Shown piece after piece: positions 1 to 27,870 of a stretch of DNA of 31,419 bases (position 1 is the stretch's first letter; each line of letters opens with the position of its first letter). Origin of the DNA: a virus; the IMG/VR virus record IMGVR_UViG_3300022696_000071, positions 169,748 to 201,166 of that record; one strand, given 5' to 3'. The notes below the pieces were generated by a model, which was not told where the DNA came from, did no database searches, and saw only the letters and a program-made list of their open reading frames with translations. Position numbers and translations under genes: made by a program.

Positions 1-2345
1 TTCGCCTCAACAGTATCTCTTAATGTATGTGAAATTAACAAAACAATATAATCATTAGATAATGTATTCAACATATTTATCACAATGTCAACATTTTTTG
101 GATCTAATGCGTCTAAAATTTCATCCATTATGATTATATTGAAATGTGTATTTGTCATGTGTTCAAGAAGATGTCGTAATGATAATAATGTTATGATATC
201 AATTAATCGACCTTCGCCTCCAGAAAAACAATCCCTTGAATCTGTTAAATGTTCAGTATGAATACAATTAACCGAAAATTTATTTCTCATTTCTCCAGAT
301 TTTAATTGACTTTGGGAACTAAATCTTACTCTTAAATTATCAGTCATTTCAGATAATTCAGACGCACGAGAATTAATGATAGGTATAGATTCATCGAGAA
401 GAACAGCTTTAATTCCAGTAGATGAAAATGCATTTTTCCAGAATTTCAATATTTCTATATCCGTCTTTATCTTATTCAACTCTTGATTGTTAATATCTAT
501 TTTAGTCGATATATTCAATATAGAAGATTGTATATTTTTAACAGATTCATCATATTTTTCTTTATTTAATTTTCTATTTTCATTCATTATTCTGAGTCTG
601 GCTTCATACATTTCGATTTCTTTAACGCATTCATTAAAATTATTTGCTAATTGATTTAATAAATCAAGAGTTGTGGTTAATTCTAAAATTATAGATCCAA
701 CTACTTCAATTCTATCATTTATATCATTAATTTCATCATTATGTCTTTTTGTTTCTCTATCTATCAGATCATTCAATTTATTTTTGTATTTATTTTCTAA
801 TGTTAATTCTATTTTAGTTTTATCATTATTTAAATCAGATAATTTATTATTTAATGCTTCTCTATCTCTCTGATATTCAGTTGTTATATTATCTAATCTA
901 TATATTAGAGAATGTTTAACATTTACTTTCCAATCTTCAAGCAGTTCCATCTTTTCAGATTTTGATTTGTTTATATTATCCATATTTTGAGATTCTTTAT
1001 CTATTTCTTTTCCATAATTTTCAGATGAACTTTCGATATTATCAAGATTTTGTTTCAATCTTTTAAGTTCTGTTTTCATATTATTTACTTCAGATAATAT
1101 TTGAGATTTACTATATTCATCAGATAAATTTTGACCACATGCATAACACGTTGGATCATCTTTATTCAATCCATCAGTCATAGTTTTTAATCTATCATTT
1201 ACGGTTTTCATCGATTCCATTATCTCAACTTTTTTATCTGATAAATTAGATAATTCCATTGAATATGTCTGAAGTCGTTCTCTAACAGGTTCTACTTGTC
1301 TATTAAATTCTTCATCTATATTTGATTTATCAAATAGATATTTAGATTTAGCTTTTTGATTTTCATTTTCGATACCAGATCTATTATTATTAAATGAGAT
1401 ATCAAGATTTGATAATTTATTATTCAATTGATTTATTTTATCAGTTATATCTCTTAATTGTCGATTTAACTCATTATTTTTATCTGATTCTATTTTCTGA
1501 CGTATAAGATTTATATCTTGATTATATTCCCTTTGTTTACTCTCTATTTTGTTTTTAAGAGTTGTATGATCTATTTCATATTGGGTTAACTGTCGTTTTA
1601 TATCTTTAATATCATGAGTTTTTAATTCGGCTTCAAATTTTGATTTTTTATCTAATAATTGTTTTATTTCTTTATTTATATCTTCTACCGATTTGTCATG
1701 ATTATCTTTTTCTGATTGTTCAGATTTACGAATATTTTCTAATTCTGCATTTCTGGTATTTAAATATTTTTCATTAAATTCTATTTCAGATGATATAGTT
1801 GGTATTTTATTCTTACTTAATTCATCTTCTTTATTTTTTATAGATTGTCTATATTCTTCATATGCATCCAAATTTAACATCATATCAAAAATCTTTTTCT
1901 GATTTCCATCTGTTTCTTCAGTAAAAGATTTCTTTATAAACTGAGAGAACATTAAACAGTTTATAAATATATTAAATGGCATTAATATGTCTTCAATAGA
2001 TACATCAACTGGAGTTTTACCATTATCTTTATATATTAAGAATTCATTTTTATAAACTTTATGTTTTCTGTATCGTTCTACTCTATATTCATCGTCATCT
2101 ATACTAAACGTCAATTTAACATATGTATTTTTACCACTTCTTATTCGTATTACATCATCTGCTTTTATATTCTTGGTTGTTTTGCCATATAGTGCATATA
2201 CTATACCATCACAACATAATGTTGTTTTTCCTTGCCCATTATTCCCTTGAACAATAACGAATCTATTCGGTGTAAATTCGAAATCTATATGTTCGAAACA
2301 TTTGAAATTATGCATTTCTATTTTTTTGAATATTACTTGTCTCAT
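1..2345 (-). CDS. Rad50/SbcC-like recombination ATPase (T4 gp46-like); C-terminal end runs off window start (partial)
   Basis: Minus-strand frame starts at ATG 2343-2345 (MRQVIFKKIEMHNFKCF...), with N-terminal Walker A GNNGQGKTT. Long Lys/Glu/Asn-rich coiled-coil carries a zinc-hook-like CYAC. Near window start (C-terminal) are ABC signature FSGGE, Walker B IIIMDE and H-loop ISH. The start overlaps the stop of the SbcD-like gene (TAATG). Confidence 0.85.
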   Translation of the reverse strand, partial: MRQVIFKKIEMHNFKCFEHIDFEFTPNRFVIVQGNNGQGKTTLCCDGIVYALYGKTTKNIKADDVIRIRSGKNTYVKLTFSIDDDEYRVERYRKHKVYKNEFLIYKDNGKTPVDVSIEDILMPFNIFINCLMFSQFIKKSFTEETDGNQKKIFDMMLNLDAYEEYRQSIKNKEDELSKNKIPTISSEIEFNEKYLNTRNAELENIRKSEQSEKDNHDKSVEDINKEIKQLLDKKSKFEAELKTHDIKDIKRQLTQYEIDHTTLKNKIESKQREYNQDINLIRQKIESDKNNELNRQLRDITDKINQLNNKLSNLDISFNNNRSGIENENQKAKSKYLFDKSNIDEEFNRQVEPVRERLQTYSMELSNLSDKKVEIMESMKTVNDRLKTMTDGLNKDDPTCYACGQNLSDEYSKSQILSEVNNMKTELKRLKQNLDNIESSSENYGKEIDKESQNMDNINKSKSEKMELLEDWKVNVKHSLIYRLDNITTEYQRDREALNNKLSDLNNDKTKIELTLENKYKNKLNDLIDRETKRHNDEINDINDRIEVVGSIILELTTTLDLLNQLANNFNECVKEIEMYEARLRIMNENRKLNKEKYDESVKNIQSSILNISTKIDINNQELNKIKTDIEILKFWKNAFSSTGIKAVLLDESIPIINSRASELSEMTDNLRVRFSSQSQLKSGEMRNKFSVNCIHTEHLTDSRDCFSGGEGRLIDIITLLSLRHLLEHMTNTHFNIIIMDEILDALDPKNVDIVINMLNTLSNDYIVLLISHTLRDTVEA

Positions 2346-3388
2346 TATTGATTACCCCCTATAGCTTTTAATCCAACTTTCATGTATTTTTTTCTATCCC
2401 GCTCTGGAACATTTTCTATTTCAAGCCATTTTTTCATTTGATCTTTAATTTGCATATTAGATGTTATTCCACGTATTTCGTATTCTTCTTCATATTCATC
2501 TAATAATACAATATCTTCTTTAGAAGTATCCAATTCTTTTGGAACTTCTTTGAGTTTATTTCTAACGATTACATGATGCCCCTCTTTTTTCCTCTTTTCT
2601 ATATTTTCCAACATTGTCTTAAGATTACTCTTTGATGATTCATCAATTATAAAATTATAATACTTCCTATACCCTTTTGTTTCCACACTTTCTACTGATA
2701 AATCATCTGGATCTATAACGAGAAATCTTTTTGTTTCTCCATGCTCATCACGACGAAGTGGTATAGGGGAACCAACATAATATAATTTAGTAGTATCATT
2801 TTCTATTTTCTGAGGAGTATGATAATGACCAAGTAATACTAATTTAAATTTTGATAAATCGCCCATCGATATATTAGTTTTTAATGATATTCCAGATGCT
2901 AAATGTGCATCTGATAAACCAAAATGAGATATTAATATATCTGCTGGTGATGAATTTTCTATATGATTTATAATATTTTTAGAATGTGGAATATACATTA
3001 TATTATCAGTGAAGAATGGTTCAGTTATAGATGAAACATTTCCGTAACCACTTAACAAATTTATAGAAGATTCATTTTCAACATTCGATCCAATGTCATG
3101 ATTCCCATGAAGTAACACAAAATGTATACTTCTATACTTAAGTAGCACTTTACGTCTAAAATAATCAAAAGCTCTTGTATGAATGGTATTTTTAAGATCA
3201 TTTATATCACCACCTATTACTAACTTTGGAATATCGTTATTTAAAGCATAATTACACATATGATCGATTGTATCAATTGTTTCTATTAATCTAAGTGGTA
3301 TACCATCATCATTACTTTTTTTATCATTCCACATCTTTAAATGGATATCTGCTGTGAAAATGAATTTTTCTCTGGTTGACGAATTCAT
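2345..3388 (-). CDS. Mre11/SbcD-like calcineurin-type phosphoesterase nuclease (T4 gp47-like)
   Basis: 347 aa ORF with Mre11 phosphoesterase motifs: FTADIHLK (motif I), GGDINDL (II), LLHGNHD (III), GHYH. Adjacent and translationally coupled to the Rad50-like gene, as in T4 46/47. Confidence 0.88.
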   Translation of the reverse strand: MNSSTREKFIFTADIHLKMWNDKKSNDDGIPLRLIETIDTIDHMCNYALNNDIPKLVIGGDINDLKNTIHTRAFDYFRRKVLLKYRSIHFVLLHGNHDIGSNVENESSINLLSGYGNVSSITEPFFTDNIMYIPHSKNIINHIENSSPADILISHFGLSDAHLASGISLKTNISMGDLSKFKLVLLGHYHTPQKIENDTTKLYYVGSPIPLRRDEHGETKRFLVIDPDDLSVESVETKGYRKYYNFIIDESSKSNLKTMLENIEKRKKEGHHVIVRNKLKEVPKELDTSKEDIVLLDEYEEEYEIRGITSNMQIKDQMKKWLEIENVPERDRKKYMKVGLKAIGGNQ

Positions 3389-4164: not shown

Positions 4165-4881
4165 TTAATTTCCGTTACCGTTTTCTTCATATTTTACTCT
4201 TTTATGATGCTCACTCTTCATTTCTTCAATCATGATTTCTCTTAATTTTCTTTGTTGATAAAATGACATAGTTACATAATCGAATTGCTCATCTGCAACT
4301 ATTTCATTAAATATTTCATCAAATAATGTTTCGTGATCATATTCTGAAGAACTAAATTCAGATTTAAATCTTGCTTCTACTGTGTCACAAAGCATTAAAA
4401 GACCAGCTTCGATTGATCGTGGTCTTTGTGTTTTATATCTGTAATCATCTTCATTTTTGCTCTTACTACGATCATAAAATATTTTCAATAATCTCGTCCC
4501 ATGATGTTGACAACACCACTGTATAACATCTCTTGGTATATTATTATCTGGAAGAAGAATTATTGCTGTATCTGATACATGAGTTGTTATTATCTTTTTT
4601 GACATCCACGGATCAAGCGTATCATGGGGATTCTTATCATCTTCTCTTTGATTTTCGCTGAAATATTTTGGATCGACTGTTTTACCAATATCATGATACA
4701 TTCCAGCTATTTCCAATTTGTGAGTATCGAGTTTAAACTCATTACCAAGTGTTATTAATAAAGACGATACTTTTTTACAATGAGCATGAGTTCCTGGTGC
4801 CTTTTCTTTCAATTTTATCATCAATGGATATTGTGGATCTAAAACATCTGTTGATGATGGATTTTCATTTAATTCATTCAT
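4165..4881 (-). CDS. HD-domain metal-dependent phosphohydrolase
   Basis: H..H (THAHCKK) followed about 28 aa later by MYHDIGK (classic HD motif), then further His/Asp (THVSD, LCD). RBS AAAGGAGA. Confidence 0.7.
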   Translation of the reverse strand: MNELNENPSSTDVLDPQYPLMIKLKEKAPGTHAHCKKVSSLLITLGNEFKLDTHKLEIAGMYHDIGKTVDPKYFSENQREDDKNPHDTLDPWMSKKIITTHVSDTAIILLPDNNIPRDVIQWCCQHHGTRLLKIFYDRSKSKNEDDYRYKTQRPRSIEAGLLMLCDTVEARFKSEFSSSEYDHETLFDEIFNEIVADEQFDYVTMSFYQQRKLREIMIEEMKSEHHKRVKYEENGNGN

Positions 4882-4898: not shown

Positions 4899-5429
4899 TT
4901 AAATGAAAAAATTGATGTTGGTTAACTTAATAATTATTCTGTTAAAATCATAGATAAGTATAGTTGAAAGAATATTTTTTGTAAATGTACTGACTGGATT
5001 TATATAATATGCAAATATATCGGAATGTATAGCTTTACTGGATATATACTTTTCATTTTTATATGTATATCTATGTTGCAATTTTTCTAAATATTCTCTA
5101 TATGGTAATATATAACCATTAACACAAATATATGTATAAAAGTTTCGTGGGTCATGTATAGATGGTGCCAATAATCTATTATTATTATAATTTATATGAA
5201 TTGATCTATTCATAACATCAAAATCAATTTTATCTATAGTTGCACCATGCTTAATTAGATACTTTTTAACTTCTCTTTCAAAATTTTTATGATTTTCTTC
5301 TATAAATTTAGTATCAATTTTTCGTTCATCAAATATAAATTTAAATCTTAATCTTATATTATTTATATCTTTTTGGATTATATTATTAGTTTCATCTATA
5401 ACCCTTCTTATATTCAAATAACTCATCAT
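4899..5429 (-). CDS. hypothetical protein, member of window-wide paralog family (YTYICVNGYILP motif)
   Basis: ORF track frame. Its start overlaps the next gene (ATGA). Shares the central Y-T-[FY]-I-x-x-N-G motif with ORFs 5426, 5929, 12096 and 12686. Confidence 0.55.
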   Translation of the reverse strand: MMSYLNIRRVIDETNNIIQKDINNIRLRFKFIFDERKIDTKFIEENHKNFEREVKKYLIKHGATIDKIDFDVMNRSIHINYNNNRLLAPSIHDPRNFYTYICVNGYILPYREYLEKLQHRYTYKNEKYISSKAIHSDIFAYYINPVSTFTKNILSTILIYDFNRIIIKLTNINFFI

Positions 5430-5932
5430 AATATATATCCTTTCTCTGACAAGACATCATATATCTTTTCTACTCCAATATATAGATCATAATTCAATGT
5501 ATAATCAAAAACTAAACCATTATTTCCACTTAAATGACCATCAAAAAATTCTCCTAATTCATTCTTATATACATATATATTTGTAAATTTAAATTCGGTT
5601 GGTTTAAATTTATTTATCATAGATTTAAAATAATGATAATCTATAAATATACCAAATTTTATATTTAATGCACTATATAAATTTGATGGAATTATATAAA
5701 TGTTTTTTACTAATGGTTTAGAACCAAATGATATTCTATAATCTATATATTTAATATTATTCCTATTATACTTTCTTAAATATTCAGTAACATATTTTCT
5801 TATTTTTTCATGTAATTTAACTTTACCATTAAAAGTGTATTTTTTATCACTATATTTATCATTAATATAGTCTAATAATTCATCATATTTTTTGAAAAAT
5901 ATTTCATCTTGTATTAATTTCGATAAATTCAT
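5426..5932 (-). CDS. hypothetical protein, paralog family member (C-terminal ...SEKGYIL)
   Basis: Overlapping-start operon arrangement. C-terminal G-Y-I-L and internal IYIIPSNLYS resemble other family members. Confidence 0.55.
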   Translation of the reverse strand: MNLSKLIQDEIFFKKYDELLDYINDKYSDKKYTFNGKVKLHEKIRKYVTEYLRKYNRNNIKYIDYRISFGSKPLVKNIYIIPSNLYSALNIKFGIFIDYHYFKSMINKFKPTEFKFTNIYVYKNELGEFFDGHLSGNNGLVFDYTLNYDLYIGVEKIYDVLSEKGYIL

Positions 5933-6531
5933 AACATAAATCCTCTACTATTAATGATATCAAATATTCTAATAAATTTTGAAAAAATAGGGCAAATATT
6001 AAAAGTTATTGTCTTTCTTTTAGAATCTGGATGAAATGCTACAAATACCATAATATTTTCATAAATATAATACTCCATATTAAATATATCTGTCGTTATA
6101 CTATTTTCCATAATTATATTATATTTATTTTTATTAAATTCATCTGATGATAAAAATATTCCATTCGATAAGATAAATGTATATAAATTTAATGGTTTTG
6201 GAATATAGACTTGATCACACTCAAGTTTAATACTATTAAATTTTTCAAATTGTATATATTTTAAATCCAATATATCATTATATTTAATATTCAACTCTTC
6301 TAAAAAGAATTTTTTTAATTCATCATTTAAAAATGTAGTAAGATATTCACCACGTTTAAAATACTCATCAAAATTTCCATCTTTTCTTAATCTTTCTAAA
6401 AAATTAGTTTCACATAAAATATTAGTTAGTGAAACTAATTTGTATTTTCCTTGATTTTCAATAAATTTAATTATTCCAATTCTATTATCAACATAAGTAT
6501 CCTTTAATAATTTTGATATGATTTCATTCAT
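5929..6531 (-). CDS. hypothetical protein, paralog family member (YTFILSNGIFLS ... INSRGFML-COOH)
   Basis: Motif match to 12096 (YTFVLLCGVPGN ... INSKGLIL) and 12686 (YTVILLCGISTT ... INSRGIII). RBS AGGTGAT. Confidence 0.6.
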   Translation of the reverse strand: MNEIISKLLKDTYVDNRIGIIKFIENQGKYKLVSLTNILCETNFLERLRKDGNFDEYFKRGEYLTTFLNDELKKFFLEELNIKYNDILDLKYIQFEKFNSIKLECDQVYIPKPLNLYTFILSNGIFLSSDEFNKNKYNIIMENSITTDIFNMEYYIYENIMVFVAFHPDSKRKTITFNICPIFSKFIRIFDIINSRGFML

Positions 6532-6552
6532 ATAATCACCTATAAAACAAAA

Positions 6553-6586
6553 AACGGTTTATATGAATAAGATCATATAAACCGTT
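6553..6586 (-). terminator. rho-independent terminator (14-bp perfect stem AACGGTTTATATGA/TCATATAAACCGTT, then UUUUUGUUUUAU on the minus transcript)
   Basis: Inverted repeat read directly. U-run lies on the minus-strand side, 22 nt downstream of the stop of ORF 6609..7472. Confidence 0.7.
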
Positions 6587-6608
6587 CATATTCAAAAATT
6601 ATTGATAT

Positions 6609-7472
6609 TTATTGATTTATTTGTGGAACCATATCATTCGGAACTATTAAGTTACCATAACAATATATTTTATATTCAACATTATCAGTTTCAGTTTCGA
6701 GAACCATTATTAATGAATCGATACATGTCATACCATCTCTCGAAAACCTATTTGCTTCTGTGAATGTTGATAATTTATAACATTTTACACTTATTTCATC
6801 AAATCCAAGTATGAATGGATCAAGTGGGAATACAGTTGTTCCAGTTGTTTCTATATCCAAATCAATAGTTAATATTTTGCCGATTGTTGATGCAGAAGCA
6901 TCTCCCACTGGACATACAATTAGATCACATTTATCACCAGTGAATTCAAGTTGTAAAAATGTTGAATCTAATCCCCTTCCTAATGCATCCATTCTATTGA
7001 TGAGAAATCTTTGTATCTCTACTTCAAATATTGGTTGATTTGGATCGAATACAATATATCTATTATCTCTATCAGTTTCTGATATAAATCTATTGTTTAA
7101 ATATTCTTTTACTGGATTAATAAATACTATTTGAGAATAATCATCTTTAAACGTATGTTTAGTTTCAGTTATTTCAAGATCCATATCTACTTTTTGTTTC
7201 TTGAATGGATCTAACAGATCTACTTTACCCTGCAATGATATCATATCTATAGATATATTTCCTATTATATTTGATAAATCAATATTAAATATTGCAGTTT
7301 TTGAATTAGTATGTTGACATATTTCACCATTTATTATTTCCACATCATGGCACACTTTTGCTAATCTACTAAAAGTGTTAAGTAAACATGACACTTTCTC
7401 AGATTCTAAATGAATGCTAATTGGTCCTTCTTGTCTGTCTCCAACTAAATTAGTCAAGTTTTCATCTGTCAT
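6609..7472 (-). CDS. hypothetical protein (287 aa)
   Basis: Intact ORF followed by a strong terminator. Contains DLDIETTG, which resembles a DEDD-exonuclease Exo I motif, but its placement is atypical and no Exo II/III were recognised. Confidence 0.55.
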   Translation of the reverse strand: MTDENLTNLVGDRQEGPISIHLESEKVSCLLNTFSRLAKVCHDVEIINGEICQHTNSKTAIFNIDLSNIIGNISIDMISLQGKVDLLDPFKKQKVDMDLEITETKHTFKDDYSQIVFINPVKEYLNNRFISETDRDNRYIVFDPNQPIFEVEIQRFLINRMDALGRGLDSTFLQLEFTGDKCDLIVCPVGDASASTIGKILTIDLDIETTGTTVFPLDPFILGFDEISVKCYKLSTFTEANRFSRDGMTCIDSLIMVLETETDNVEYKIYCYGNLIVPNDMVPQINQ

Positions 7473-7487
7473 TTTATTTTCCCTTTT

Positions 7488-8936
7488 TTAATTTACTATC
7501 ATTTCTTTAACAGGCCAATTTCTTTCTTCATACGTCATTTTTCTCTTGGTATAACTTCTTTCAAACCAAGTGGTATTTTTTATAATCTTTGGATCATAAT
7601 CTGGACTATATTTTGGTACTCTAACAACTGGACCACCTGTATCAACAAGATCAAATACGAGTGGATTCTTCTTTATATTTTTTCCATGTTCATTCAGTAT
7701 AACTCTTTGAACTCTACCAATTGCTTGATCTATATTACCTGTTGGTGTTGACATTATAAAGCATGTAAACTCATCTCTACTATTTCCATCTCTCCCACCA
7801 GCATATGTTGCAAATACAATTTTCTTCTCATAAAATGCAACATCCAAATCATCAGTATCAGATACTTTTAATCTTTCTTTTTTGGTAGAAGTTGGTACAA
7901 ATAGACCAATATCTTTATTGTCAGCATTACATTTATCAGCAAGTGTAATCAAACAATCTTTTGTTTTTCCAAGTATAAGTGTTGGTCTATTATTATCATA
8001 TGCTTCATTAATAAGATATATTGTATTATTTATATAATGATCTATCTTATGCATTTGTTTATAATATCGTGATAATATAAATTTACCTCCCCAGGATAAA
8101 TATTTCTTATATCTATCATATATTCCAAAATTAAATTTAACTGCATAAATAAATGGATCAAGTCGCTCATCTGCTTCTTGTGGGAAATATTTAACATCTC
8201 CAAGATAATAACATATAATATCGTCTTGTCCATCTTCACGAGTAGGAGTAGCAGATAATCCATATAAACGATGACATGTCAAATGAAGAACAGCTTTAGA
8301 AAATTGTTCTGGTCCAACCCCAACATGACATTCATCAACTACTCCAACACCAATATCTGAATTCTTCAATGCATTTAAAAAATCTAATTTTTCTTTATTT
8401 ACAGCAGTATATATTACATGTGGAGTAGATAGTATTATTTTTTTATTTAATACTTTTTCATAATTTGTAGATGATAATCTCCCTATATCATCTTCTTTAA
8501 GATCAGTAAATTTAAGAAACTCATTTTCCCATTGTTTCAATAATTTATCTTTATGAGCAAATATAATTGCTTTTCTTTTTATTTTAGATATAGCTGCAAT
8601 AGTTATGACTGTTTTGCCAGAACCAGGTTCTAATTGAAGTACGCCTTTTGTGTTTGCTACTAAAAAATTAATAGCTTTTTCTTGTCTCTTATTTCTTGGA
8701 ACAATTTTCGAATTTATATCAATCTTTTCGCCTTTTATAGTGAAGTCAACAATTGGTTCAGAAGTGATGGGATAATTTCGAGGTATAAGTATATTATTGC
8801 TATCATATTCTGCATAAAATTTTATTCTTGAAACTGAATTATCCCACCCCTGAATTGTTCTATCAAGATCGCTTCTTATTTGCTCAAAACGATTATGATT
8901 TCTTGGTAATAATATCCCCCCTATTTTATCCAACAT
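7488..8936 (-). CDS. Superfamily-2 DEAD/DEAH-box helicase
   Basis: Walker A LEPGSGKTVI, motif II VVDECH, motif III LSATP, later QAIGRVQR (motif VI-like). Confidence 0.8.
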   Translation of the reverse strand: MLDKIGGILLPRNHNRFEQIRSDLDRTIQGWDNSVSRIKFYAEYDSNNILIPRNYPITSEPIVDFTIKGEKIDINSKIVPRNKRQEKAINFLVANTKGVLQLEPGSGKTVITIAAISKIKRKAIIFAHKDKLLKQWENEFLKFTDLKEDDIGRLSSTNYEKVLNKKIILSTPHVIYTAVNKEKLDFLNALKNSDIGVGVVDECHVGVGPEQFSKAVLHLTCHRLYGLSATPTREDGQDDIICYYLGDVKYFPQEADERLDPFIYAVKFNFGIYDRYKKYLSWGGKFILSRYYKQMHKIDHYINNTIYLINEAYDNNRPTLILGKTKDCLITLADKCNADNKDIGLFVPTSTKKERLKVSDTDDLDVAFYEKKIVFATYAGGRDGNSRDEFTCFIMSTPTGNIDQAIGRVQRVILNEHGKNIKKNPLVFDLVDTGGPVVRVPKYSPDYDPKIIKNTTWFERSYTKRKMTYEERNWPVKEMIVN

Positions 8937-8950
8937 AACGTCTTCCTTTT

Positions 8951-9217
8951 TTATTCAAAATTATCACCCTGTACACCAGTTTCTATCATCATTTTTATTT
9001 CTTTAGCTTTTTTAGTTATATCAAGTCCATAAAACTTATAATCATTATTTTCTATTGCTTTATTTGCACCATGATAAAATGATAATGCAGAATCATAACT
9101 TAAATAGTTACCCATTGCAGTAATATGCTCTATAACCATATTTAATATATTGATTAATCCAAGTTCTTCATCATGAATCATCATGATTTTAGGTTCATTG
9201 TCTATTTTCATTATCAA
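8951..9217 (-). CDS. hypothetical protein (88 aa)
   Basis: ORF tightly packed between the helicase and QueD-fusion genes. Confidence 0.45.
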   Translation of the reverse strand: MIMKIDNEPKIMMIHDEELGLINILNMVIEHITAMGNYLSYDSALSFYHGANKAIENNDYKFYGLDITKKAKEIKMMIETGVQGDNFE

Positions 9218-9229
9218 CCCTTTTTAATT

Positions 9230-10276
9230 TTATGAATCATCGTCCATTTCAGGAACATATATATACCTATCAGATATATATGAATTTCTATAATCAGACA
9301 TTAAAATATCATTATATTCTAAATCAACATATGATTCTGTAGTTTCCCATAATCTCAATTTATATAATCCCTTTAACAATGCTTCTTTTTCTAATACCAA
9401 CCATATATAAAGAATAATATTTTCAGCAGTTGGATTAACATCTTTTAAAATTTGATTAACATAAGAATGATCAAATCTATCTACTATATATTTATTTACT
9501 TTATCTTTTAATTTTCCAAAATCTATAGTAAATCCATAATAATCTTTTGGTAATCTTAATGTAACTTCTAATTTATAATCATGACCATGAACATACATAC
9601 ATTTTCCATTATATCCATATAAATTATGCGACGAACAGAATCTAAATATTTTTGTTATATTCATATATGTATCTGGTATAATATGATCATTACATAATGG
9701 TATATAATCTGTAACTAAACCAATATCATCAGATTCATTATTATGTAGTTTACCAAATTCTTCTCTTCTATTTCCACAATAAAAACATATATGCTCTCGT
9801 TCATTTTGATTATGATAAAATTCTGCAATTGATGATAACTGACGAATTGATGTATAGCCGTTTATTTTTTTATTTGAATCTACATATTCAGATATAAATG
9901 TGAATAATTTTTCATCATTTTCTGGTAAATTTGAATCGATATTATAATCAGTTATTAAGTCTAATGATTTTCCCATTGTTTTGATATCAAATATATTGCC
10001 ATATAAATTATATATTTTTCTATTTGGCATTAATTTCATTATTCGCCATTTTATAAGATTTAATAAATCATCAGTACCTTTTATTCTAACATTATAAGAA
10101 TTATACATGTATTTATTAACTTCAAATTTTATTTCAGATATACCATATGACGTATTCTTAATAATAGTATCCAATTTATTTATTGTATCTTTTAAAATAT
10201 CAATACTAATTCTACCAAGTGATATACTTCTTATTAAATCGTTAAATGTATTAAACGTTTCTAATTTTTTTGACAT
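9230..10276 (-). CDS. queD: Two-domain protein: N-terminal unknown region (about 215 aa with CxxC and DHIIP) fused to a C-terminal QueD/6-carboxy-tetrahydropterin synthase (PTPS) domain
   Basis: C-terminal about 125 aa align by eye to E. coli QueD. Matches include FRFCSSHNL/FEAAHRL, KCMYVHGHDY/KCGRLHGHSF, IDFGKLK/IDFAELK, RFDHSYVNQI/RLDHHYLNDI and NPTAENIILYIW/NPTSEVLAKWIW. This covers the Cys-x4-HGH zinc/catalytic motif. Confidence 0.78.
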   Translation of the reverse strand: MSKKLETFNTFNDLIRSISLGRISIDILKDTINKLDTIIKNTSYGISEIKFEVNKYMYNSYNVRIKGTDDLLNLIKWRIMKLMPNRKIYNLYGNIFDIKTMGKSLDLITDYNIDSNLPENDEKLFTFISEYVDSNKKINGYTSIRQLSSIAEFYHNQNEREHICFYCGNRREEFGKLHNNESDDIGLVTDYIPLCNDHIIPDTYMNITKIFRFCSSHNLYGYNGKCMYVHGHDYKLEVTLRLPKDYYGFTIDFGKLKDKVNKYIVDRFDHSYVNQILKDVNPTAENIILYIWLVLEKEALLKGLYKLRLWETTESYVDLEYNDILMSDYRNSYISDRYIYVPEMDDDS

Positions 10277-10294
10277 TTTGAAGTTCTCCTATAA

Positions 10295-11671
10295 TCAAGT
10301 TATAATATCATTATATATTTTTACACATTCATTATTTATATTTTTTAATTTTGACTCATTATCTTTAACTTTATTTTCTAATTCATGTATATCTAATTCA
10401 ACAGTTAATAATTTCTTTATCTTATATTTATTTATTATATTTTCTATATCTTCTCTACTTTCATATATTTTATGAGATATATCATCGATATATTCATCTT
10501 TCCAGCCAGTTTCAGAAAGATGACTAATATATGGTCTTATTTTACCAACTATATTTAACTCTTTTATTTTTTTATTTAGTGATTCTATTTGTAAGTTATG
10601 ATATTTCTCTTTAGCAGCTTTAAAATGATTATATGCAGATAATAGAAAATCATCTACGCCTATACTTTTGACAGTATCATCTTCAACAACCATTATATTG
10701 TATGACCGTGTGAATGTAAGAGCATTATCTACAGCATCCACCATTTGATCAAACATTTTTTTCTTATTTCTTTTTCTGGTAACACTGATTCTGATACGAG
10801 GTGGCTTTTCAGTATATATATCTAAATCTTCATAATCATCTTCTTTTTCATCACCAGTTTCATCAACAAATGAGATATTACCATCACTTGCAAGATTATA
10901 TTTTTTATATCTATCTATTTTATTCCATATCTTCTCAAAAGATGTTCTATTATCAAACCCTTTAACCATCACATCAAAATTCTTATTATCATTATAATAC
11001 TCTCCCTTAAATTCTATTTTAGCTGAACCGTCTTTAAGAAGTTTCTTATATAATTTATCATCTGATATTGCTATGCATCCAGGGAGACTTGGTTTTATAA
11101 ATATATCCTCCTTCGATTCACCAATAAGAAATAATAATCTTTTTACTAAATCTTCTATTTTGTATGTTGGTAAATCTACTTTGAAACCAAAGGCTATCGT
11201 GTTTAAATCAAACTTTGATATGAGACATAATGGAATTGTTGTTGGAAGAGAAATCGGTTCCTCTTCACCATCGAGTTCACCATCTATCCAATCAACATAA
11301 TCAATATATTCAAATGCTATTTTTTCAATAAATGGATTCGATTTAACACTTGTATATCTTGGAGCAGCAGCATTTGTCTTCTCAATTCCCATAGAAAGTC
11401 CCCACTGCCCCGATCCATGAACCAACCCGTTGGACACTAATGTTTGTATTGGAACTTCTGCCAGAGCATATGGGTGGAGTCTGGCAGAAGTATTACCAAG
11501 TATTTTAACCGTTTTTTCAAACTTATTTTTAGCTGATCTATGAACCGTCAATAATAATCTTCTGTGAATTGGGATTAATCCATCGAGAATAGATGGTATC
11601 ATTTTTGAAGTATTCACATATTTTGCATAGCTATAGTATAACGATTTTATAATAGTATCCAATATGTACAC
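10295..11671 (-). CDS. Type II DNA topoisomerase medium subunit (GyrA-like cleavage/religation subunit, T4 gp52-like)
   Basis: GyrA N-terminal motif IPSILDGLIPIHRRLL and active-site region AAAPRYTSVKS (catalytic Tyr). 458 aa, similar in size to T4 gp52. Confidence 0.88.
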   Translation of the reverse strand: MYILDTIIKSLYYSYAKYVNTSKMIPSILDGLIPIHRRLLLTVHRSAKNKFEKTVKILGNTSARLHPYALAEVPIQTLVSNGLVHGSGQWGLSMGIEKTNAAAPRYTSVKSNPFIEKIAFEYIDYVDWIDGELDGEEEPISLPTTIPLCLISKFDLNTIAFGFKVDLPTYKIEDLVKRLLFLIGESKEDIFIKPSLPGCIAISDDKLYKKLLKDGSAKIEFKGEYYNDNKNFDVMVKGFDNRTSFEKIWNKIDRYKKYNLASDGNISFVDETGDEKEDDYEDLDIYTEKPPRIRISVTRKRNKKKMFDQMVDAVDNALTFTRSYNIMVVEDDTVKSIGVDDFLLSAYNHFKAAKEKYHNLQIESLNKKIKELNIVGKIRPYISHLSETGWKDEYIDDISHKIYESREDIENIINKYKIKKLLTVELDIHELENKVKDNESKLKNINNECVKIYNDIIT

Positions 11672-11674
11672 CTC

Positions 11675-12049
11675 CTAAATCTTCCCTGCTTTGACGAGAT
11701 CAATTACTTTTAAGCAAGTTTCTTTCCCAAATTTGGATATATGGCAATCTTTATAGGGTATATCGAGCAATTTAGACAAGTTTAAATATACTCGCGTTCT
11801 TGACATAATACCATTTTTCCAAATAAGATCTAAGTAGTTATGAGTTTCTACTCTTAATTTTTTTAATTCTGTATCGTTTATTGGTTTTCCTCTTGGTTCT
11901 CCGTATCTATCAGCACTTATACTTGATTTACATTTTGGATACTTTAAACATCCATAATACCAACCAAATCTACCATGTTTTAAAACCATATCGGATGAAC
12001 AGTGAGGACAAGTTATAATCTTCACTTCTCTTATAGTAGCTGTTTCCAT
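11675..12049 (-). CDS. Topoisomerase-type C4 zinc-ribbon protein (124 aa)
   Basis: CPHCSSDMVLKHGRFGWYYGCLKYPKC matches the zf-C4 topoisomerase ribbon pattern (CxxC ... GxFGx[YF]xGC..YPxC). Stop lies 3 nt from the gp52-like start. Confidence 0.7.
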   Translation of the reverse strand: METATIREVKIITCPHCSSDMVLKHGRFGWYYGCLKYPKCKSSISADRYGEPRGKPINDTELKKLRVETHNYLDLIWKNGIMSRTRVYLNLSKLLDIPYKDCHISKFGKETCLKVIDLVKAGKI

Positions 12050-12095
12050 ATTAATTACCTTTTACTCACATAAATAATATATTTCCTTTCTTATA

Positions 12096-12674
12096 TTATA
12101 ATATTAAGCCTTTACTATTAATTATTGAATATATCCCATGCGCATTCATATTAGTTCTATTAACATTAGGATAAAACGAAGAATATAATGGTTCACCATG
12201 TTCAACTTTAAAAACTATAATAAATGCATCATTTTCATATATAAAACCAAGTTCACGATGATCATCGAATACAAAGTTATCATTTTTTGTTTCTTTTCTA
12301 ATATGTTTAGAAAATTCTGCATAATTTCCAGGTACACCACAAAGTAGTACAAATGTATATGGGTCATTAAGGATTATAAAATCTAATAAATATAACGAAT
12401 CTTTAAAGTGTCGGATAAATATAGATGGATCTGCCATCACACCTCTACAATAAATAAAATCACCACATGATTTTTCATTTATTAATTCGTATAGTTTTTT
12501 AGTTACATATACAAGTTGTTCAATTATTAATTCATTTCTGCTATTTGGAAAATCTTTACTGTATGGATCGATACATTTTCCAAATTTTTCTACATATTTT
12601 CTCGATGCTTTGTTTATGATGTTGTGCAACTCAGATAACAAATAATTCGATATTAATACTTCCATTAAATCCAA
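12096..12674 (-). CDS. hypothetical protein, paralog family member (192 aa)
   Basis: Tandem paralog of 12686..13258 (CRGVMADPSIFIRHF/CKGVMISPDVFISKV; YTFVLLCGVPGNYAEF/YTVILLCGISTTYTIF; C-terminal INSKGLIL/INSRGIII). Confidence 0.6.
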   Translation of the reverse strand: MDLMEVLISNYLLSELHNIINKASRKYVEKFGKCIDPYSKDFPNSRNELIIEQLVYVTKKLYELINEKSCGDFIYCRGVMADPSIFIRHFKDSLYLLDFIILNDPYTFVLLCGVPGNYAEFSKHIRKETKNDNFVFDDHRELGFIYENDAFIIVFKVEHGEPLYSSFYPNVNRTNMNAHGIYSIINSKGLIL

Positions 12675-12685
12675 TTTATCTTCAT

Positions 12686-13258
12686 TTATATAATTATACC
12701 TCTACTATTAATATTCTTATATATCCAATTTATATTTATACGAGAAACATCCATTTTTAAATCAAATATTAATTTAATATAATCAGAATGGTGAAAATCA
12801 TAATCGATATTAAATAATTCATGTTTATATCTATTTCCGCCATGTATAACATTTGAATATAATGATTTACGATTTATATAGTTTTGATAAAATATAGTAT
12901 AAGTTGTAGATATTCCGCATAATAATATAACAGTATATATATCATTAGCTTTTATATGATCAAACACACATTTTTCATCTACTTTTGATATAAACACATC
13001 TGGTGATATCATTACACCTTTACAAAATTCAAAACAATTTTTAGAATTTTTATATATTAAATAATATAATTTATTTGTTAAATTTAATATTGTATCAAGC
13101 AATAATTTATTATTATATTCTTTATATTTATGGTATTCTCTTCTATAAGGATTAGCATTTAATTTACTATAATATTCATCGTATGTTAATTTTATCAATT
13201 CCATTAATTCAGATAACATATATTTTCTCAATAAAATTTCTGCTCTATCTTTATCCAT
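12686..13258 (-). CDS. hypothetical protein, paralog family member (190 aa)
   Basis: See the previous feature; an intact ORF. Confidence 0.6.
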   Translation of the reverse strand: MDKDRAEILLRKYMLSELMELIKLTYDEYYSKLNANPYRREYHKYKEYNNKLLLDTILNLTNKLYYLIYKNSKNCFEFCKGVMISPDVFISKVDEKCVFDHIKANDIYTVILLCGISTTYTIFYQNYINRKSLYSNVIHGGNRYKHELFNIDYDFHHSDYIKLIFDLKMDVSRININWIYKNINSRGIII

Positions 13259-13278
13259 ATAATCATTTACTTATATAT

Positions 13279-15120
13279 TTAATCTTCTTCTATTTTCCAT
13301 TCTCCCATAGCTAATTTCCGTTTCTCAGAACTTAATGTTAATAAATCGGTTATTTTATCAATATTACTGGTCCATGTTACTTTTCTTATTTTTCTCGTAT
13401 TCTTATCCAGTATAAGTCGTTTCAAATCTTTTGGTAAGAATTCTCCTAATCCTTTAAATCTATATATCTTTTCTCCTTTATTTGATGCTTCTTTTCTTTC
13501 ATTTGTTGTCCAAATTGGAACCAATTTTTTATTTCTACGAACACCATATAATGGAATAATACAAATATAAAGATTTCCATTTTTGATAATATCTGGAGTC
13601 AATTTTGCAAAAAGAGCAATAAGAAGAACTGTAATGAATCGACCAGCAGGATCAGCGTCTGCTGCTAATAATATTTTATCATATCGTAATTTTTTAATAT
13701 TACAATTATCAAGTATTCCAGTTCCAACAGCATTCACTATATCTTTTATTTCTTTATTTTTTATTAATTCATCTGTTTTCTTCATCATTGCATTTGGTAT
13801 TACACCACGAAGAGGGAGTATGGCATGATGTTTTTTATCTCTTACTTGAATAAGACCACCTATTGCAGAATCACCCTCCCCGATTATCAATTCAGAATTC
13901 TTTCTACTTTTACAATCTGATAATTTAGTGAATTTAGTTGATCCACGTTTTGTACCAGTTCCATTTCCCTTCTCAATTTTCAATGCTCTATTTTGAATTG
14001 ATTTTCTTCTCAATTCGAATCGTTCTATTAATTTATCTCTTATTTCTTTATTCTTAGAAAAATAATTAAATAATTCTCTATTAAGTATTTTATCCAAAAC
14101 TGATAAATCACTTTTGGACTCAAGTTTAACTTTAACTTGAGCTTCAAAAGATGTTTTTATTAATTTAAGATCCATGAATATACGAAGATTTGCAAGACAA
14201 TCTTCTGGAATATATTCTGCTTTATGTTTCTTTCCAATTCGCTCAAATACAGATTTTAATTCATTTGTTAACTTAGTTATATGAACGCCACTATGTACTC
14301 GTACTAAATTAACACATGTGAATGATTTTGTAGCAATTGGTGGATGATCATCCCATCCAATTTTAAGAAAACATTCTTCTGGTCCCTTTTTTACAGTAAA
14401 TTCAAACCATTCAATATTATCTATATGTTTTGTTAGATAATATTTTATAAGATCATTTCTATCTGTATTTATAACAACATCATTTCCATCTACTCGATAT
14501 ACAATTCTAAGTTTTGGATAATTTGAACATGCAATTCTTAATTTTTCTTCAATTACATCTAAATCTACACCAGTATCATTGAAATATTTAGAAGATGGTT
14601 TTACAGTTACTTTAGTTGAATATGGTGGATTACCATTATATGTTTCAAACTTTCGTGAATAGTCAGATGTATTCTTAAATGAATATGTTCCACGTTTTCC
14701 ATCTCTATAAATATCTATTTCAAAATATTCAGATACTGCGTTAACTGCTGTATTTCCAATTCCATGTAATCCACTCGCTATCTTATAAGCAGAATCTTTT
14801 TTGTCTTTATTAAATTTACCAGATGAAAAAAGTTTAAGAGAAGTAGAAATGGGTGGATCTTCTTCTTCTGGAAGATCAGGATCAAATGGCATACCTCTAC
14901 CATTATCTAATACTCTAAATTCTTTATTTTCAGTATCAATAAATACACCAATTATATCACTGTAGCCAGCTTGAACTTCATCAAGAGCATTATCGATTAA
15001 TTCTTCTGCTAATCTCGTAGCAGTTTCAGTACTTCCTAAATACATACCCGTATTATGACGAATATGATTGATTTCATCCATTACAACTATATCTTCAGTT
15101 CCATAAATATCCATAAGCAT
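13279..15120 (-). CDS. Type II DNA topoisomerase large subunit (GyrB-like ATPase + TOPRIM; T4 gp39 fused with gp60 equivalent)
   Basis: GHKL ATPase N-box EELIDNALDE, TOPRIM IIGEGDSAIGG and DADPAG. 613 aa is about T4 gp39 (516) plus gp60 (160), as in T2-type fused genes. Continuous frame with no bypass gap. Confidence 0.9.
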   Translation of the reverse strand: MLMDIYGTEDIVVMDEINHIRHNTGMYLGSTETATRLAEELIDNALDEVQAGYSDIIGVFIDTENKEFRVLDNGRGMPFDPDLPEEEDPPISTSLKLFSSGKFNKDKKDSAYKIASGLHGIGNTAVNAVSEYFEIDIYRDGKRGTYSFKNTSDYSRKFETYNGNPPYSTKVTVKPSSKYFNDTGVDLDVIEEKLRIACSNYPKLRIVYRVDGNDVVINTDRNDLIKYYLTKHIDNIEWFEFTVKKGPEECFLKIGWDDHPPIATKSFTCVNLVRVHSGVHITKLTNELKSVFERIGKKHKAEYIPEDCLANLRIFMDLKLIKTSFEAQVKVKLESKSDLSVLDKILNRELFNYFSKNKEIRDKLIERFELRRKSIQNRALKIEKGNGTGTKRGSTKFTKLSDCKSRKNSELIIGEGDSAIGGLIQVRDKKHHAILPLRGVIPNAMMKKTDELIKNKEIKDIVNAVGTGILDNCNIKKLRYDKILLAADADPAGRFITVLLIALFAKLTPDIIKNGNLYICIIPLYGVRRNKKLVPIWTTNERKEASNKGEKIYRFKGLGEFLPKDLKRLILDKNTRKIRKVTWTSNIDKITDLLTLSSEKRKLAMGEWKIEED

Positions 15121-17581: not shown

Positions 17582-17660
17582 TGGTGGACCCTGCTGGATT
17601 CGAACCAGCGAATGATCGGTTATGAGCCGATGGCCTTACCAGACTTGGCGAAGGGTCCAC
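17582..17660 (-). tRNA. tRNA-Met (anticodon CAT; elongator-type; could alternatively be lysidine-modified tRNA-Ile2), CCA encoded
   Basis: Acceptor GTGGACC/GGTCCAC, anticodon stem ATCGG/CCGAT with loop CTCATAA, T-arm GCTGG-TTCGAAT-CCAGC, discriminator A, then CCA. Confidence 0.85.
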
Positions 17661-19191
17661 ATAATTAAATTACAATATATCTTGAACTTTAATATGCCTA
17701 TGGAATTTTTATACGAGATGTGGAATGGATATTAAAATCCATCAAATATTAATTCCGTCACATAAATGCATCTCTATCGCAAATGAGTCAGAAAGGAGTT
17801 AGAAACCGACTCATTTACTATCCCTTTTATTTTATTTAGAAATAACCATAACCATTAATGCCGCCAATCGGCAGGGATTCTGTGATTATTCCATAGGCAT
17901 ATTAAAATTTAAGATAACTTATACACACTAAACTGATCATGGGCATGTATGTGGGAGGATGGTATGCGCGTACCATATTCCATATACATGCAAGCGAGTC
18001 TCATGATCAGTTTACTACATATAAATTGAATGATTTGAGTTCCCCAACATTGACAGTTTGCGTCACCGATCAAGGTCTAAGAACTTATTAAGAGAACCCA
18101 AATCAAAGCATTTGCATATATATGCATTAATCTGATCACAAGCCATGATTACGATACGAGAAATAGGATTAAATAATATCGTAATCATTAGAGAGAAGAA
18201 GGGGTTGTCTGCCGCAACCGTAAAGCTCTCAAACTTGTGACCAGATTAATACATATATAAAAGACTCAAATGGGGAAATGGGACAGTTTGAGTGGGTATT
18301 CTACTTTTTACCATCTCCCCATCTGAGAAACCAAATCGGGCACCATCGTTTGTGGCGATTATACATCCGGTATGAATAATAACCGCCGATGCCCTTATCT
18401 TATCGTTATATCAAACTCATATGTGGGTATCACCTCCTTCCTTAATATTTATCCGATTACTCACAGGCCAATCAGTCTTACACTCAACGCCCATGACATA
18501 AAAGCGAAGAGTTGCTGATTGACGACGACTAATATATTCTAATATGATTCCATGCAGGGAGACTCGTTGGTTAGACAATACTCCCTGAATATGACCGATG
18601 ACACATTGCAATGATTAACGTAAATTAATCACCGATCTTTGATTATCTGCACTCATCGCAAAATAATCACGACATCTTACTGCCGTTTTGACACGACCAC
18701 CACAGCCGCGTCTCAATGCATCAATCATGCACATTTACGTGTACTATGATTGTATCGGATTAGCTTTAATCATCCACTACATGGACGACATTTTATCCGA
18801 CAAATGCATGGAACCATATTACAATATACTAATTAAGAGTTGAAGATCTCGTTATTGATTGACTGCCACGAAAATCAACAACAAAATCTTCAATCTCTTT
18901 AAATTGATGAATACAACGTTATCATAATATATAAACCTTATAAGATTTATATACGTTGCTTGAGCCATAGCTTCCCCATCAAGCAACAGATAACGTTGTA
19001 CTCATAGTAAACTGATCGAGCATCGGTGTTTGTAAACGGAATGAACACCAATCTCTTTCGAGTGCATGATGTTCTCGTTTTGCTCGATCAGTTTATAATG
19101 AACACAATCTTGACTCGGCACGAATCAACCAAACGGATTAAATATTGATAAATAAAGATTGTGCTCATTATAAAATCAAAGATTAATTGAG
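17661..19191 (-). ncRNA. ORF-free, GC-elevated (about 40%), hairpin-dense 1.5-kb region inside the tRNA operon; candidate stable structured RNA(s), identity unknown
   Basis: No ORF of 65 aa or more on either strand (the two 60-64 aa track ORFs lack RBS, and one overlaps tRNA-Leu). Many perfect 10-15 bp inverted repeats, including two about 85-nt hairpins at 17931-18014 and 19007-19092. Flanked by co-oriented tRNAs. Confidence 0.35.
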
Positions 19192-26961: not shown

Positions 26962-27870
26962 TTAGATCGCCGAGACGACTATCCGCGTAACCAGTTCAAG
27001 ATCCAATTCTGAATCTTTTTTCTGGTTGCTGCCGATAATCGTGCCACTTGGCGGTCCACCCCAACCACTTTCGACTTTACTGATGTCGTCAGCAGCGGGG
27101 GCAACGGAGATTCCCTTGTTACCAGCGACCGTAAACTTTCTAATCCCTTGGAAATTGGGATTAACAGCCACGACCACTTGTGCACCATTTTCATACAGTG
27201 CACCTATGGTTCCAAAGAAACCAGACTCCACCGAAGCTATAATAAGCCCCGACTTTGTCTTACCCCATGTTGCCTTTTCGACGACCTTCTGCACTTGCCG
27301 TTTATTTTCGGCGTGTGCATCGACGAATTGAACATAATGTTCATTTTCATCGACCAACAGTTTCATCGATCCAAAAGGATCAATTCCACTGCGGGAAATA
27401 TCGTCGAGAAACAATATCCCTTCTTCGACCTTTTTCGCGTTATCTTTCGGATTAACCAGAAAGATACCGGAAATTATGTCGGAGAGGAACGGGGGTTCCC
27501 CGATAGAGTATTTTCGGATCTCGTCCGGGCCGAATCTATCCATCGTATCGATGTATTTTACGATACGCTGAGTATCTTCGGTGTAGACACCGACTGGCTT
27601 ATATTTATCATAAGCCTGCCAGGTCGCCGAAACGAGACCTTCAGATCCTTCGCCATGATGATCAAAGTTCATCAGATCGACTCGACCGCTTCCACCGCAT
27701 TCGATACAAACTACGGTTGGGTCGGAAAGATCTTCAGCCTTTGCATCGCCAAAGACGAACTCAATGGCATCGGCCTTAACGTCGAAACGAAAAGCTAAAA
27801 GCCAAAGAGCACCGATAATATCAAGATCGACCTTAAACCCACAGACGATCTTGGAAATATTATCCAACAT
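26962..27870 (-). CDS. hypothetical protein encoded by an anomalously GC-rich (about 50%) gene, 302 aa; function unknown
   Basis: Perfect RBS GGAGGGAGG 6 nt before the ATG at 27870. Gly/Val/Asp/Ala-rich composition typical of a high-GC donor. ILFLDDISRSG is weakly reminiscent of a PRPP-binding loop (speculative). Overlapping long plus-strand ORFs are GC artefacts. Confidence 0.6.
   Translation of the reverse strand: MLDNISKIVCGFKVDLDIIGALWLLAFRFDVKADAIEFVFGDAKAEDLSDPTVVCIECGGSGRVDLMNFDHHGEGSEGLVSATWQAYDKYKPVGVYTEDTQRIVKYIDTMDRFGPDEIRKYSIGEPPFLSDIISGIFLVNPKDNAKKVEEGILFLDDISRSGIDPFGSMKLLVDENEHYVQFVDAHAENKRQVQKVVEKATWGKTKSGLIIASVESGFFGTIGALYENGAQVVVAVNPNFQGIRKFTVAGNKGISVAPAADDISKVESGWGGPPSGTIIGSNQKKDSELDLELVTRIVVSAI

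Follow-up and report, generated by a model that had tools for sequence, protein, structure and literature searches.

We analysed a 31,419-nucleotide (31.4-kb) stretch of viral DNA, positions 169,748 to 201,166 of the IMG/VR record IMGVR_UViG_3300022696_000071 (hereafter the window), which holds at 9230..10276, on the minus strand, a gene whose product joins a QueD-type domain to a long N-terminal extension. Homology and active-site conservation indicate that the C-terminal domain is very probably an active synthase of 6-carboxy-5,6,7,8-tetrahydropterin (CPH4), and we place high confidence in this enzymatic assignment taken alone. To the fuller statement, that a QueD-type CPH4 synthase carries a lineage-specific orphan appendage and is co-expressed with replication genes, we give an even chance. 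Modification of the phage DNA is not demonstrated by anything in the sequence at hand. The window is part of the genome of a very divergent, AT-rich large phage, of about 201 kb, and the negative results obtained with it cover that stretch alone, about 170 kb lying outside.

The QueD-type (PTPS-I) T-fold domain spans residues 207-320 (9317..9658, minus strand). It was recognised by PF01242 (PTPS; 95.8 bits, E 2.3e-27, above the gathering cut-off of 22.4 bits), by PHROG 2389 ("QueD-like"), by the QueD equivalog model TIGR03367, at a score below its trusted cut-off, and by sequences in the PDB, of which P. aeruginosa 2oba (E 5e-12) and E. coli QueD 3qn0/4ntm (1e-7) were the top matches. We also modelled the 348-residue protein with AlphaFold2 (AF2), using a multiple sequence alignment of 122 sequences. 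In this predicted, not solved, structure the predicted local distance difference test score (pLDDT) reaches 75-95 (mostly 82-95) across residues 201-320, with predicted strands (E) and helices (H) at E204-217, E230-243, H253-268, H284-297, E304-310 and E316-320. Foldseek superposed the model on 2oba with a template-modelling (TM) score of 0.85 and on E. coli QueD (4ntk) with 0.80-0.84. The alignment of the window protein with 121 other PTPS-family proteins, nearly all of them QueD-type, showed that the 16 invariant columns are all kept, including H217, C226, H230-G-H232, D269-H270 and E311. The zinc histidines His217, His230 and His232 are therefore all conserved, and H217, D269-H270 and E311 align with both E. 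coli and P. aeruginosa QueD. The C-terminal QueD domain with an intact active site proposed in an earlier note, made from the sequence alone, is thus confirmed by family and PDB matches, predicted fold and conservation.

The active-site motif reads C226-M-Y-V-H230-G-H232 (9581..9601, minus strand, placed by the alignments), that is CxxxHGH, and not the Cys-x4-HGH given in the earlier note. This miscount is relevant because Cx4HGH would mean QueD2 (PMC9894224). CxxxHGH is the signature of QueD/PTPS-I (PMC5041015, PMC9894224, PMC10516641), while CxxxxxHGH marks PTPS-II and ExxHGH marks PTPS-III (PMC5041015), and the phage paralogue DpdL carries LxxxHRHxF (PMC10516641). QueD2 was ruled out by the three residues between Cys and HGH. 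PTPS-II, PTPS-III and the hybrid type (CExxHGH) were ruled out as well, since CMYVHGH has Met after the Cys and three residues before HGH. DpdL was discarded because both Cys and Gly are retained and phmmer with phiST DpdL gave no match.

The gene and the fusion are real. The open reading frame (ORF) runs from ATG to stop, stop codon included, and encodes 348 residues laid out as an orphan N-terminal region, the QueD-type domain and a short acidic tail. A Shine-Dalgarno (SD)-like AGGAG (10286..10290, minus strand) lies about 10 nt upstream of the ATG, and similar sequences precede most genes of the window. The internal Met205, where stand-alone QueDs start in the alignment, has no SD in front of it. 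The chance of a 205-codon open frame is about 2e-9, at a stop probability of about 9% per codon in this composition. G+C content (0.22) and G+C at third codon positions (GC3, 0.10) are equal in the N-terminal and QueD-coding parts, which argues against an assembly chimera, and the identical 348-residue protein (P0001) was found on two JGI contigs, the longer of 201,166 bp. The C-terminal tail comprises residues 321-348 (9233..9316, minus strand); its last 26 residues (323-348) are acidic (isoelectric point 4.05) and end in EMDDDS, and this tail is lacking in the other aligned QueDs.

The N-terminal extension (residues 1-205; 9662..10276, minus strand) is an orphan that is probably largely helical. 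A non-standard extension had been noticed before and is indeed present, its length being about 205 residues instead of the 215 then given. When 1.84 billion representative proteins were searched by HMMER without filters, no homologue came up except the protein itself and one probably spurious match, a repetitive 957-residue protein (E 3e-4). With Pfam opened to E<=10 only noise appeared (BIR, 0.17) and no HNH family; PDB sequences gave no match to the extension, and tblastn with its Cys/His region against 50,697 phage genomes gave none at E<=10. Neither a paralogue elsewhere in the window nor a counterpart in the sequence read from related phages was seen. The AF2 model gave no confident fold for it: pLDDT is 32-64 in the extension and below 50 for residues 150-205, secondary structure at residues 46-99 was contradictory between runs, and only helices at about 2-19, 25-41, 68-82, 121-134 and 144-155 recurred. 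Run on the full-length sequence alone, AF2 was uninformative (pLDDT 33).

The strings CFYCGNRREE and PLCNDHIIPD quoted in the earlier note are both found in the extension, with C164, C167, C195 and H198. Read directly, they make up a candidate CCCH site, C164-x2-C167-x27-C195-x2-H198 (9683..9787, minus strand), which spans CFYCG and CNDHIIP, holds three of the five Cys of the protein and could plausibly bind zinc. Other readings of the extension were considered and rejected. A degenerate second T-fold, or a partial duplicate of QueD, was suggested by H155, C164, G186 and D190, each of which by eye stands 62 residues ahead of its match among H217, C226, G248 and D252; the QueD profile scored about 1 bit on the extension, Smith-Waterman comparison against shuffles gave p 0.49-0.60 and the diagonal score was -9, so that the resemblance is one of chance. 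The string LCNDHIIP also resembles the LCEHHLLP of FolE. A truncated FolE or a TGT-like zinc site was dismissed, as neither the FolE, DpdA3 nor TGT profiles matched and Pfam lent FolE no support.

The topoisomerase II (topo II) subunit genes, the QueD fusion, the superfamily 2 (SF2) helicase gene and the gene of a 287-residue protein form one operon-like unit on the minus strand. The unit includes the topo II large subunit (13279-15120) and the small, GyrA-like subunit (10295..11671; PF00521, PHROG 551), whose stop lies 18 nt ahead of the QueD-fusion start. Three genes (11675-13258) are inserted between the two subunit genes: two paralogous ORFans of 192 and 190 residues without a family (12686-13258 and 12096-12674), in tandem and alike in sequence by eye, and a 124-residue DUF3268/topoisomerase-type C4 zinc-ribbon protein (11675-12049). 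Directly downstream of the QueD fusion are a small ORF of 86-88 residues with no family (8951..9217), the SF2 helicase (ResIII/DEAD, by Pfam and PHROG; 7488..8936) and, as the last gene, the 287-residue protein (6609..7472). The latter matched nothing in Pfam, PHROG, NCBIfam or the PDB sequences, and the idea of a hidden DpdA was abandoned, since it had no profile match and a four-sequence profile of it found no PDB sequence. Gene spacing in the unit is tight, and the unit is closed by the only strong intrinsic-terminator-like hairpin (6552..6587, minus strand; 15-bp stem and T run). Past this terminator lie three ORFans, an HD/HDIG protein (4165-4881), a 188-residue ORFan, a Mre11-like gene and a Rad50-like gene. 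The neighbours named earlier therefore stand in part: the SF2 helicase and the 287-residue ORF are close by, the HD protein is three ORFs further on and beyond the terminator, and the topo II small subunit gene directly upstream had been left out.

A megablast search over window positions 5000-15000 found no nucleotide similarity to any reference phage, and no reference phage has a topo II large subunit more than 32% identical to the one encoded here, so that the link once drawn to T4-like Campylobacter phages is not a particular one. In IMG/VR, tblastn confirmed no relative of the topo II small subunit. Homologues of this subunit (P0005-P0011, 33-44% identity) led us to five further uncultivated phage lineages, which were read over 14-21 kb per lineage. 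Four of them gave a readable block downstream of topo II, the contigs L124 and L134 ending at or just after the topo II gene. The topo II/helicase/Mre11-Rad50 block is common to all four, and a QueD gene occurs in that block in two: L122/L123, where it lies between the topo II small subunit and the helicase, and L128/L131-133, where it follows a 485-residue ORF. The SF2 helicase is conserved in the relatives, as is the 287-residue protein (homologues in L125, L122 and L127), with or without QueD; these two are therefore core genes of the replication block, not a QueD-linked module. The modification module that had been suspected around the QueD fusion is thus not supported, its helicase and 287-residue members belonging to the block irrespective of QueD and its HD member standing behind the terminator. 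No homologue of the HD gene turned up in the sequence read from the relatives.

The QueDs of the two lineages share the CxxxHGH signature, are 31-32% identical to the window QueD and have in common an internal insertion that the window QueD lacks. The window QueD scores 76 bits against that of phage BCD7 and 58-60 bits against those of the relatives, which are mutually best at 92 bits; a gene replacement at the QueD locus may have occurred. In L122/L123 the QueD has 290 residues, begins with a hydrophobic helix and ends in a tail of low complexity, and its gene overlaps the start of a Metallophos gene. In L128/L131-133 it is a plain 144-residue protein followed directly by a 342-residue radical SAM protein. 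The appendages in the relatives are unlike the window extension. The small ORFs that precede QueD in the relatives were tried as its source and showed no similarity to it, and nor did the 206-residue protein that occupies the same position in L125, which resembles instead a 168-residue ORF of the window (5426-5932). Since the QueDs of the relatives are either plain or carry unrelated appendages, the extension is, as judged by sequence comparison, lineage-specific.

Several genes around the QueDs of the relatives deserve mention in their own right. The radical SAM gene lies at L132:10455-11483 (also L133:4803-5831, and called shorter in L131 and L128). The top NCBIfam matches of its product are of the PapB, viperin and MoaA type; it is similar to SPASM-type maturases, to viperin and to MoaA, and it was rejected as QueE, the QueE profile giving E 2.2. 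An HGPRT-like phosphoribosyltransferase gene (L132:2878-3399) is located 7 kb upstream of the QueD/radical SAM pair, and together the QueD, radical SAM and HGPRT-like genes of L132 may mark an undescribed pterin/deazapurine nucleotide pathway. In L122 (12148-13733) the N-terminal helix of the 290-residue QueD is transmembrane-like and the overlapping gene encodes a 237-residue calcineurin-like phosphoesterase; 11 kb upstream of that QueD is a gene of the Thg1 family (tRNA-His guanylyltransferase-like; L122:187-945).

In the reading that we favour, the QueD-type, zinc-dependent T-fold enzyme would turn 7,8-dihydroneopterin triphosphate into CPH4, which would be the committed step towards 7-deazaguanines. 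The gene would be expressed within a replication unit made up of the topo II subunits, the QueD fusion, the SF2 helicase, the 287-residue protein and the terminator. The CPH4 would serve the 7-deazaguanine modification of phage DNA, with QueE, QueC and DpdA encoded elsewhere in the genome of about 200 kb or partly supplied by the host. We grade this end use, itself inferred, as the most likely one, at a little under an even chance. It is suggested by analogy: the top reference-phage match of the window QueD is that of BCD7 (76 bits, 36% identity), which sits in a full QueD-QueE-QueC-FolE-TGT cluster; several other phage deazaguanine clusters adjoin replication genes; and all viruses known to carry 7-deazaguanine synthesis genes also encode a DpdA, the signature gene of 7-deazaguanine DNA modification (PMC10516641). 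The extension most plausibly arose when queD, once a gene of its own, became joined to an ORFan upstream of it, Met205 losing its SD; the position of Met205 at the stand-alone start, with no SD, fits such a fusion. As for its role, we would guess at an accessory region for interaction, localisation or regulation rather than a second known enzyme.

Several observations weigh against this reading. TIGR03367 was the top NCBIfam model for the QueD domain, and its score of 80.2 bits is under the trusted cut-off of 89.25. No FolE, QueE, QueC or DpdA/TGT was detectable in the window with Pfam, PHROG, NCBIfam, motif scans (radical-SAM and PP-loop) or custom searches, and the same four partners went undetected in the 14-21 kb read in each related lineage. 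The motifs CxxxCxxC and SGGxDS fall within no ORF in any frame of the window. Profiles of DpdA3, QueE and FolE built from reference-phage proteins, and single-sequence searches with QueC and TGT (the BCD7 TGT), reached a best E of 0.29 in the window. All five of the reference phages that were inspected have their QueD a few kb at most from its partners, those named being BCD7, phiST, BSP7 and MA9V-3, with Dp-1 and Mufasa8 by annotation; the surroundings of QueD in Vibrio phage V07 are unannotated. QueD is also missing from the block in L125/L126 and in L127, which makes it accessory. The negative for DpdA is weak evidence, because DpdA3 and DpdA4 were found by HHpred only (PMC10516641), so that such proteins need profile-profile methods, and the window is rich in ORFans. 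The claim that the gene is a marker of 7-deazaguanine DNA hypermodification stays unproven, none of the four partners being detectable in the window.

Among the other explanations, the one that survives best, and which we still consider unlikely, is a support of translation. The phage QueD would raise the queuosine flux of the host, tRNAs with GUN anticodons including the phage tRNA-Tyr(GTA) would be modified and the decoding of the highly abundant NAU codons tuned, with no modification of DNA. This is consistent with a solitary QueD that has no DpdA, QueE or QueC in view in the window, with a codon usage in which the NAY codons (Tyr, His, Asn, Asp) make up 22% of the codons of the window and are 88-93% U-ending, and with the phage tRNA-Tyr(GTA) (21372-21461, minus strand) as a potential queuosine substrate. 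In Q-tRNA synthesis, moreover, the committed step falls to QueD, which can be limiting (PMC9894224). However, every phage deazaguanine gene set that was re-examined has been tied to DpdA and DNA modification (PMC10516641), boosting a single step would work only in a host equipped with the whole pathway, and the placement in a replication operon and the N-terminal extension are left unexplained.

Somewhat less probable again is an undescribed entry into pterin/deazapurine metabolism, with partners differing by lineage: the orphan region in the window, the radical SAM/SPASM-like and HGPRT-like proteins in one relative and the metallophosphoesterase in another. Such a pathway may make a modified nucleotide before replication, in place of base exchange by DpdA. 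The arrangement in L132/L133, where the 144-residue QueD is directly followed by a radical SAM protein that is not QueE-like, points in this direction, as do the HGPRT-like gene 7 kb upstream in L132, the overlap of the L122 QueD with the start of the Metallophos gene and the recurrence of QueD in the replication gene block across lineages. Yet this is pure guilt by association, and in relatives; the partner genes have no homologue in the window, whose QueD is nearer to that of BCD7 than to those of the relatives, so the loci are perhaps not functionally equivalent, and the N-terminal region has no recognisable catalytic motif. A broader version of the idea, which we judge improbable, extends it to an unsampled clade of AT-rich large phages in which QueD is the conserved entry to a non-canonical pathway within the replication module and lineage-specific partners replace QueE, QueC and DpdA. 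The orphan region would then be a new module that, for instance, tethers CPH4 synthesis to the replication machinery or contributes a new chemical step.

It is very improbable that the extension is an HNH-like nuclease or other nucleic-acid-handling domain, perhaps left over from a homing endonuclease, and that it links the making of the precursor to DNA or tRNA. The HNH-like metal site suggested in the earlier note comes down to CFYCG followed by DHIIP, which, compared as strings, resembles the first half of the Pfam HNH consensus (CxxCG ... DHIIP); a free-standing HNH protein (63 residues, HNH_3) does lie near the topo II genes in L125. The extension, however, matched no HNH model at E<=10, no PDB sequence, no phage genome by tblastn and none of the 1.84 billion proteins. 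The spacing from CxxCG to DH is 28 residues, far above what is usual in HNH domains. A full HNH motif has a His, an Asn and a final His or Asn on a beta-beta-alpha-metal fold, as a rule with two CxxC pairs. Here its latter half is missing, there being neither the Asn nor a helix that bears the last His or another CxxC, and the residues after DHIIPD are strand 1 of the T-fold. Equally remote is a non-functional extension, with a plain QueD made from Met205, whether because the start was wrongly called, because an ORF upstream has lately come to be read through, or because of an error in sequencing or assembly: the alignment of Met205 with stand-alone starts, the absolute orphan status and the low AF2 confidence would suit it, but the AGGAG stands at Met1 and not at Met205, 205 stop-free codons are not expected by chance (P about 2e-9), composition is the same as in the rest of the gene and the identical protein is present on two contigs.

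Phage QueD genes are routinely taken as evidence of 7-deazaguanine DNA hypermodification with anti-restriction and anti-CRISPR roles, and this case shows that the inference from QueD alone is unsafe. Here an intact, solitary QueD stands in a replication operon, in a phage clade of which hardly any relative has been characterised. If DpdA and QueE are encoded in the rest of the genome, the phages known for deazaguanines gain a deep-branching group, and their QueDs a new architecture. If they are absent there, the solitary QueD and the differing partners in the relatives would suggest a queuosine-based manipulation of translation or an undescribed pathway.

The window has an overall G+C content of 28.8% (19-46% in 1-kb windows), its substantial ORFs are all on the minus strand and it contains seven tRNA genes. 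At its edge, T4 gp46/gp47-like Rad50 (at least 783 residues, running off the window) and Mre11 (347 residues) are encoded at 3-3388 (minus strand) by genes that share a few bases where they meet; the Mre11-Rad50 block is conserved in every relative long enough to show it. Between tRNA-Met and tRNA-Leu, a segment of about 1.5 kb (17660-19190) has no ORF of at least 65 residues and a G+C content of 0.34-0.37, against about 0.27 around it. Rfam returned nothing there at gathering scores and only noise in E-value mode, and candidates for the segment are a structured RNA of an unknown kind, tRNA genes that have decayed, or something like an intron. A 302-residue ORF (26962-27870, minus strand) lies in a G+C island of 0.456, where long ORFs of the opposite strand overlap it; it matched nothing in Pfam, PHROG or NCBIfam and may be a recent acquisition. 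In the relatives, an RNA polymerase beta-subunit-like protein of 1357-1488 residues is encoded upstream of the topo II genes (L127:1-3212, L131:1-244), and the clade may carry its own multisubunit RNA polymerase. The only other word-index match was P0002 (268 residues, L001:10001-12086), a cellular tandem-PTPS protein whose second half carries Cx5HGH (PTPS-II). Its gene adjoins those of GTP cyclohydrolase I and a short-chain dehydrogenase, an arrangement suggestive of a biopterin-type operon that has nothing to do with the phage gene.

Compared with known systems, the window protein resembles bacterial QueD (EC 4.1.2.50; E. coli 4ntk/4ntm/3qn0, P. aeruginosa 2oba) in its T-fold domain of about 115 residues, with CxxxHGH, the three zinc His, the Cys/Asp/His triad and the Glu all aligned (27-36% identity, TM 0.80-0.85). 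It differs from it in the 205-residue extension and the acidic tail, in scoring below the equivalog cut-off and in having no adjoining queC, queE or folE in the window. The QueDs of phage clusters (BCD7, Dp-1, 9g, phiST, BSP7, MA9V-3) are likewise phage-encoded, several of the clusters standing beside replication genes, but they are stand-alone proteins of 145-165 residues, whereas that of the window is fused to an orphan region. The five clusters inspected have at least one of QueE, QueC, FolE and DpdA/TGT within a few kb, and the window has none in 31 kb. The QueDs of the related lineages (290 residues in L122/L123, 144 residues in L128/L131-133) share with it the replication gene block and CxxxHGH, and are set apart by their low identity (31-32%), their own internal insertion and their other or missing appendages.

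A comparable architecture is that of QueD2 "cluster 10" (275-300 residues), in which an N-terminal domain of about 180 residues and of unknown function precedes a C-terminal QueD-family catalytic domain; those proteins carry Cx4HGH, are bacterial and are often Zur-linked (PMC9894224), while the window protein has Cx3HGH. The window extension is probably not the cluster 10 domain, as judged by the lack of any such domain among the library matches and not by direct sequence comparison. DpdL, a QueD paralogue proposed to be a 7-carboxy-7-deazaguanine (CDG) decarboxylase, and the tandem PTPS protein P0002 are T-fold relatives that show how the family has diversified; the LxxxHRHxF of the former is absent from the window protein, and the N-terminal region of the window protein is no second, degenerate T-fold. 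The enzyme family and its role in phages are well known, and what is unusual in the window gene is its architecture, its isolation from partner genes and the variable partners of its relatives.

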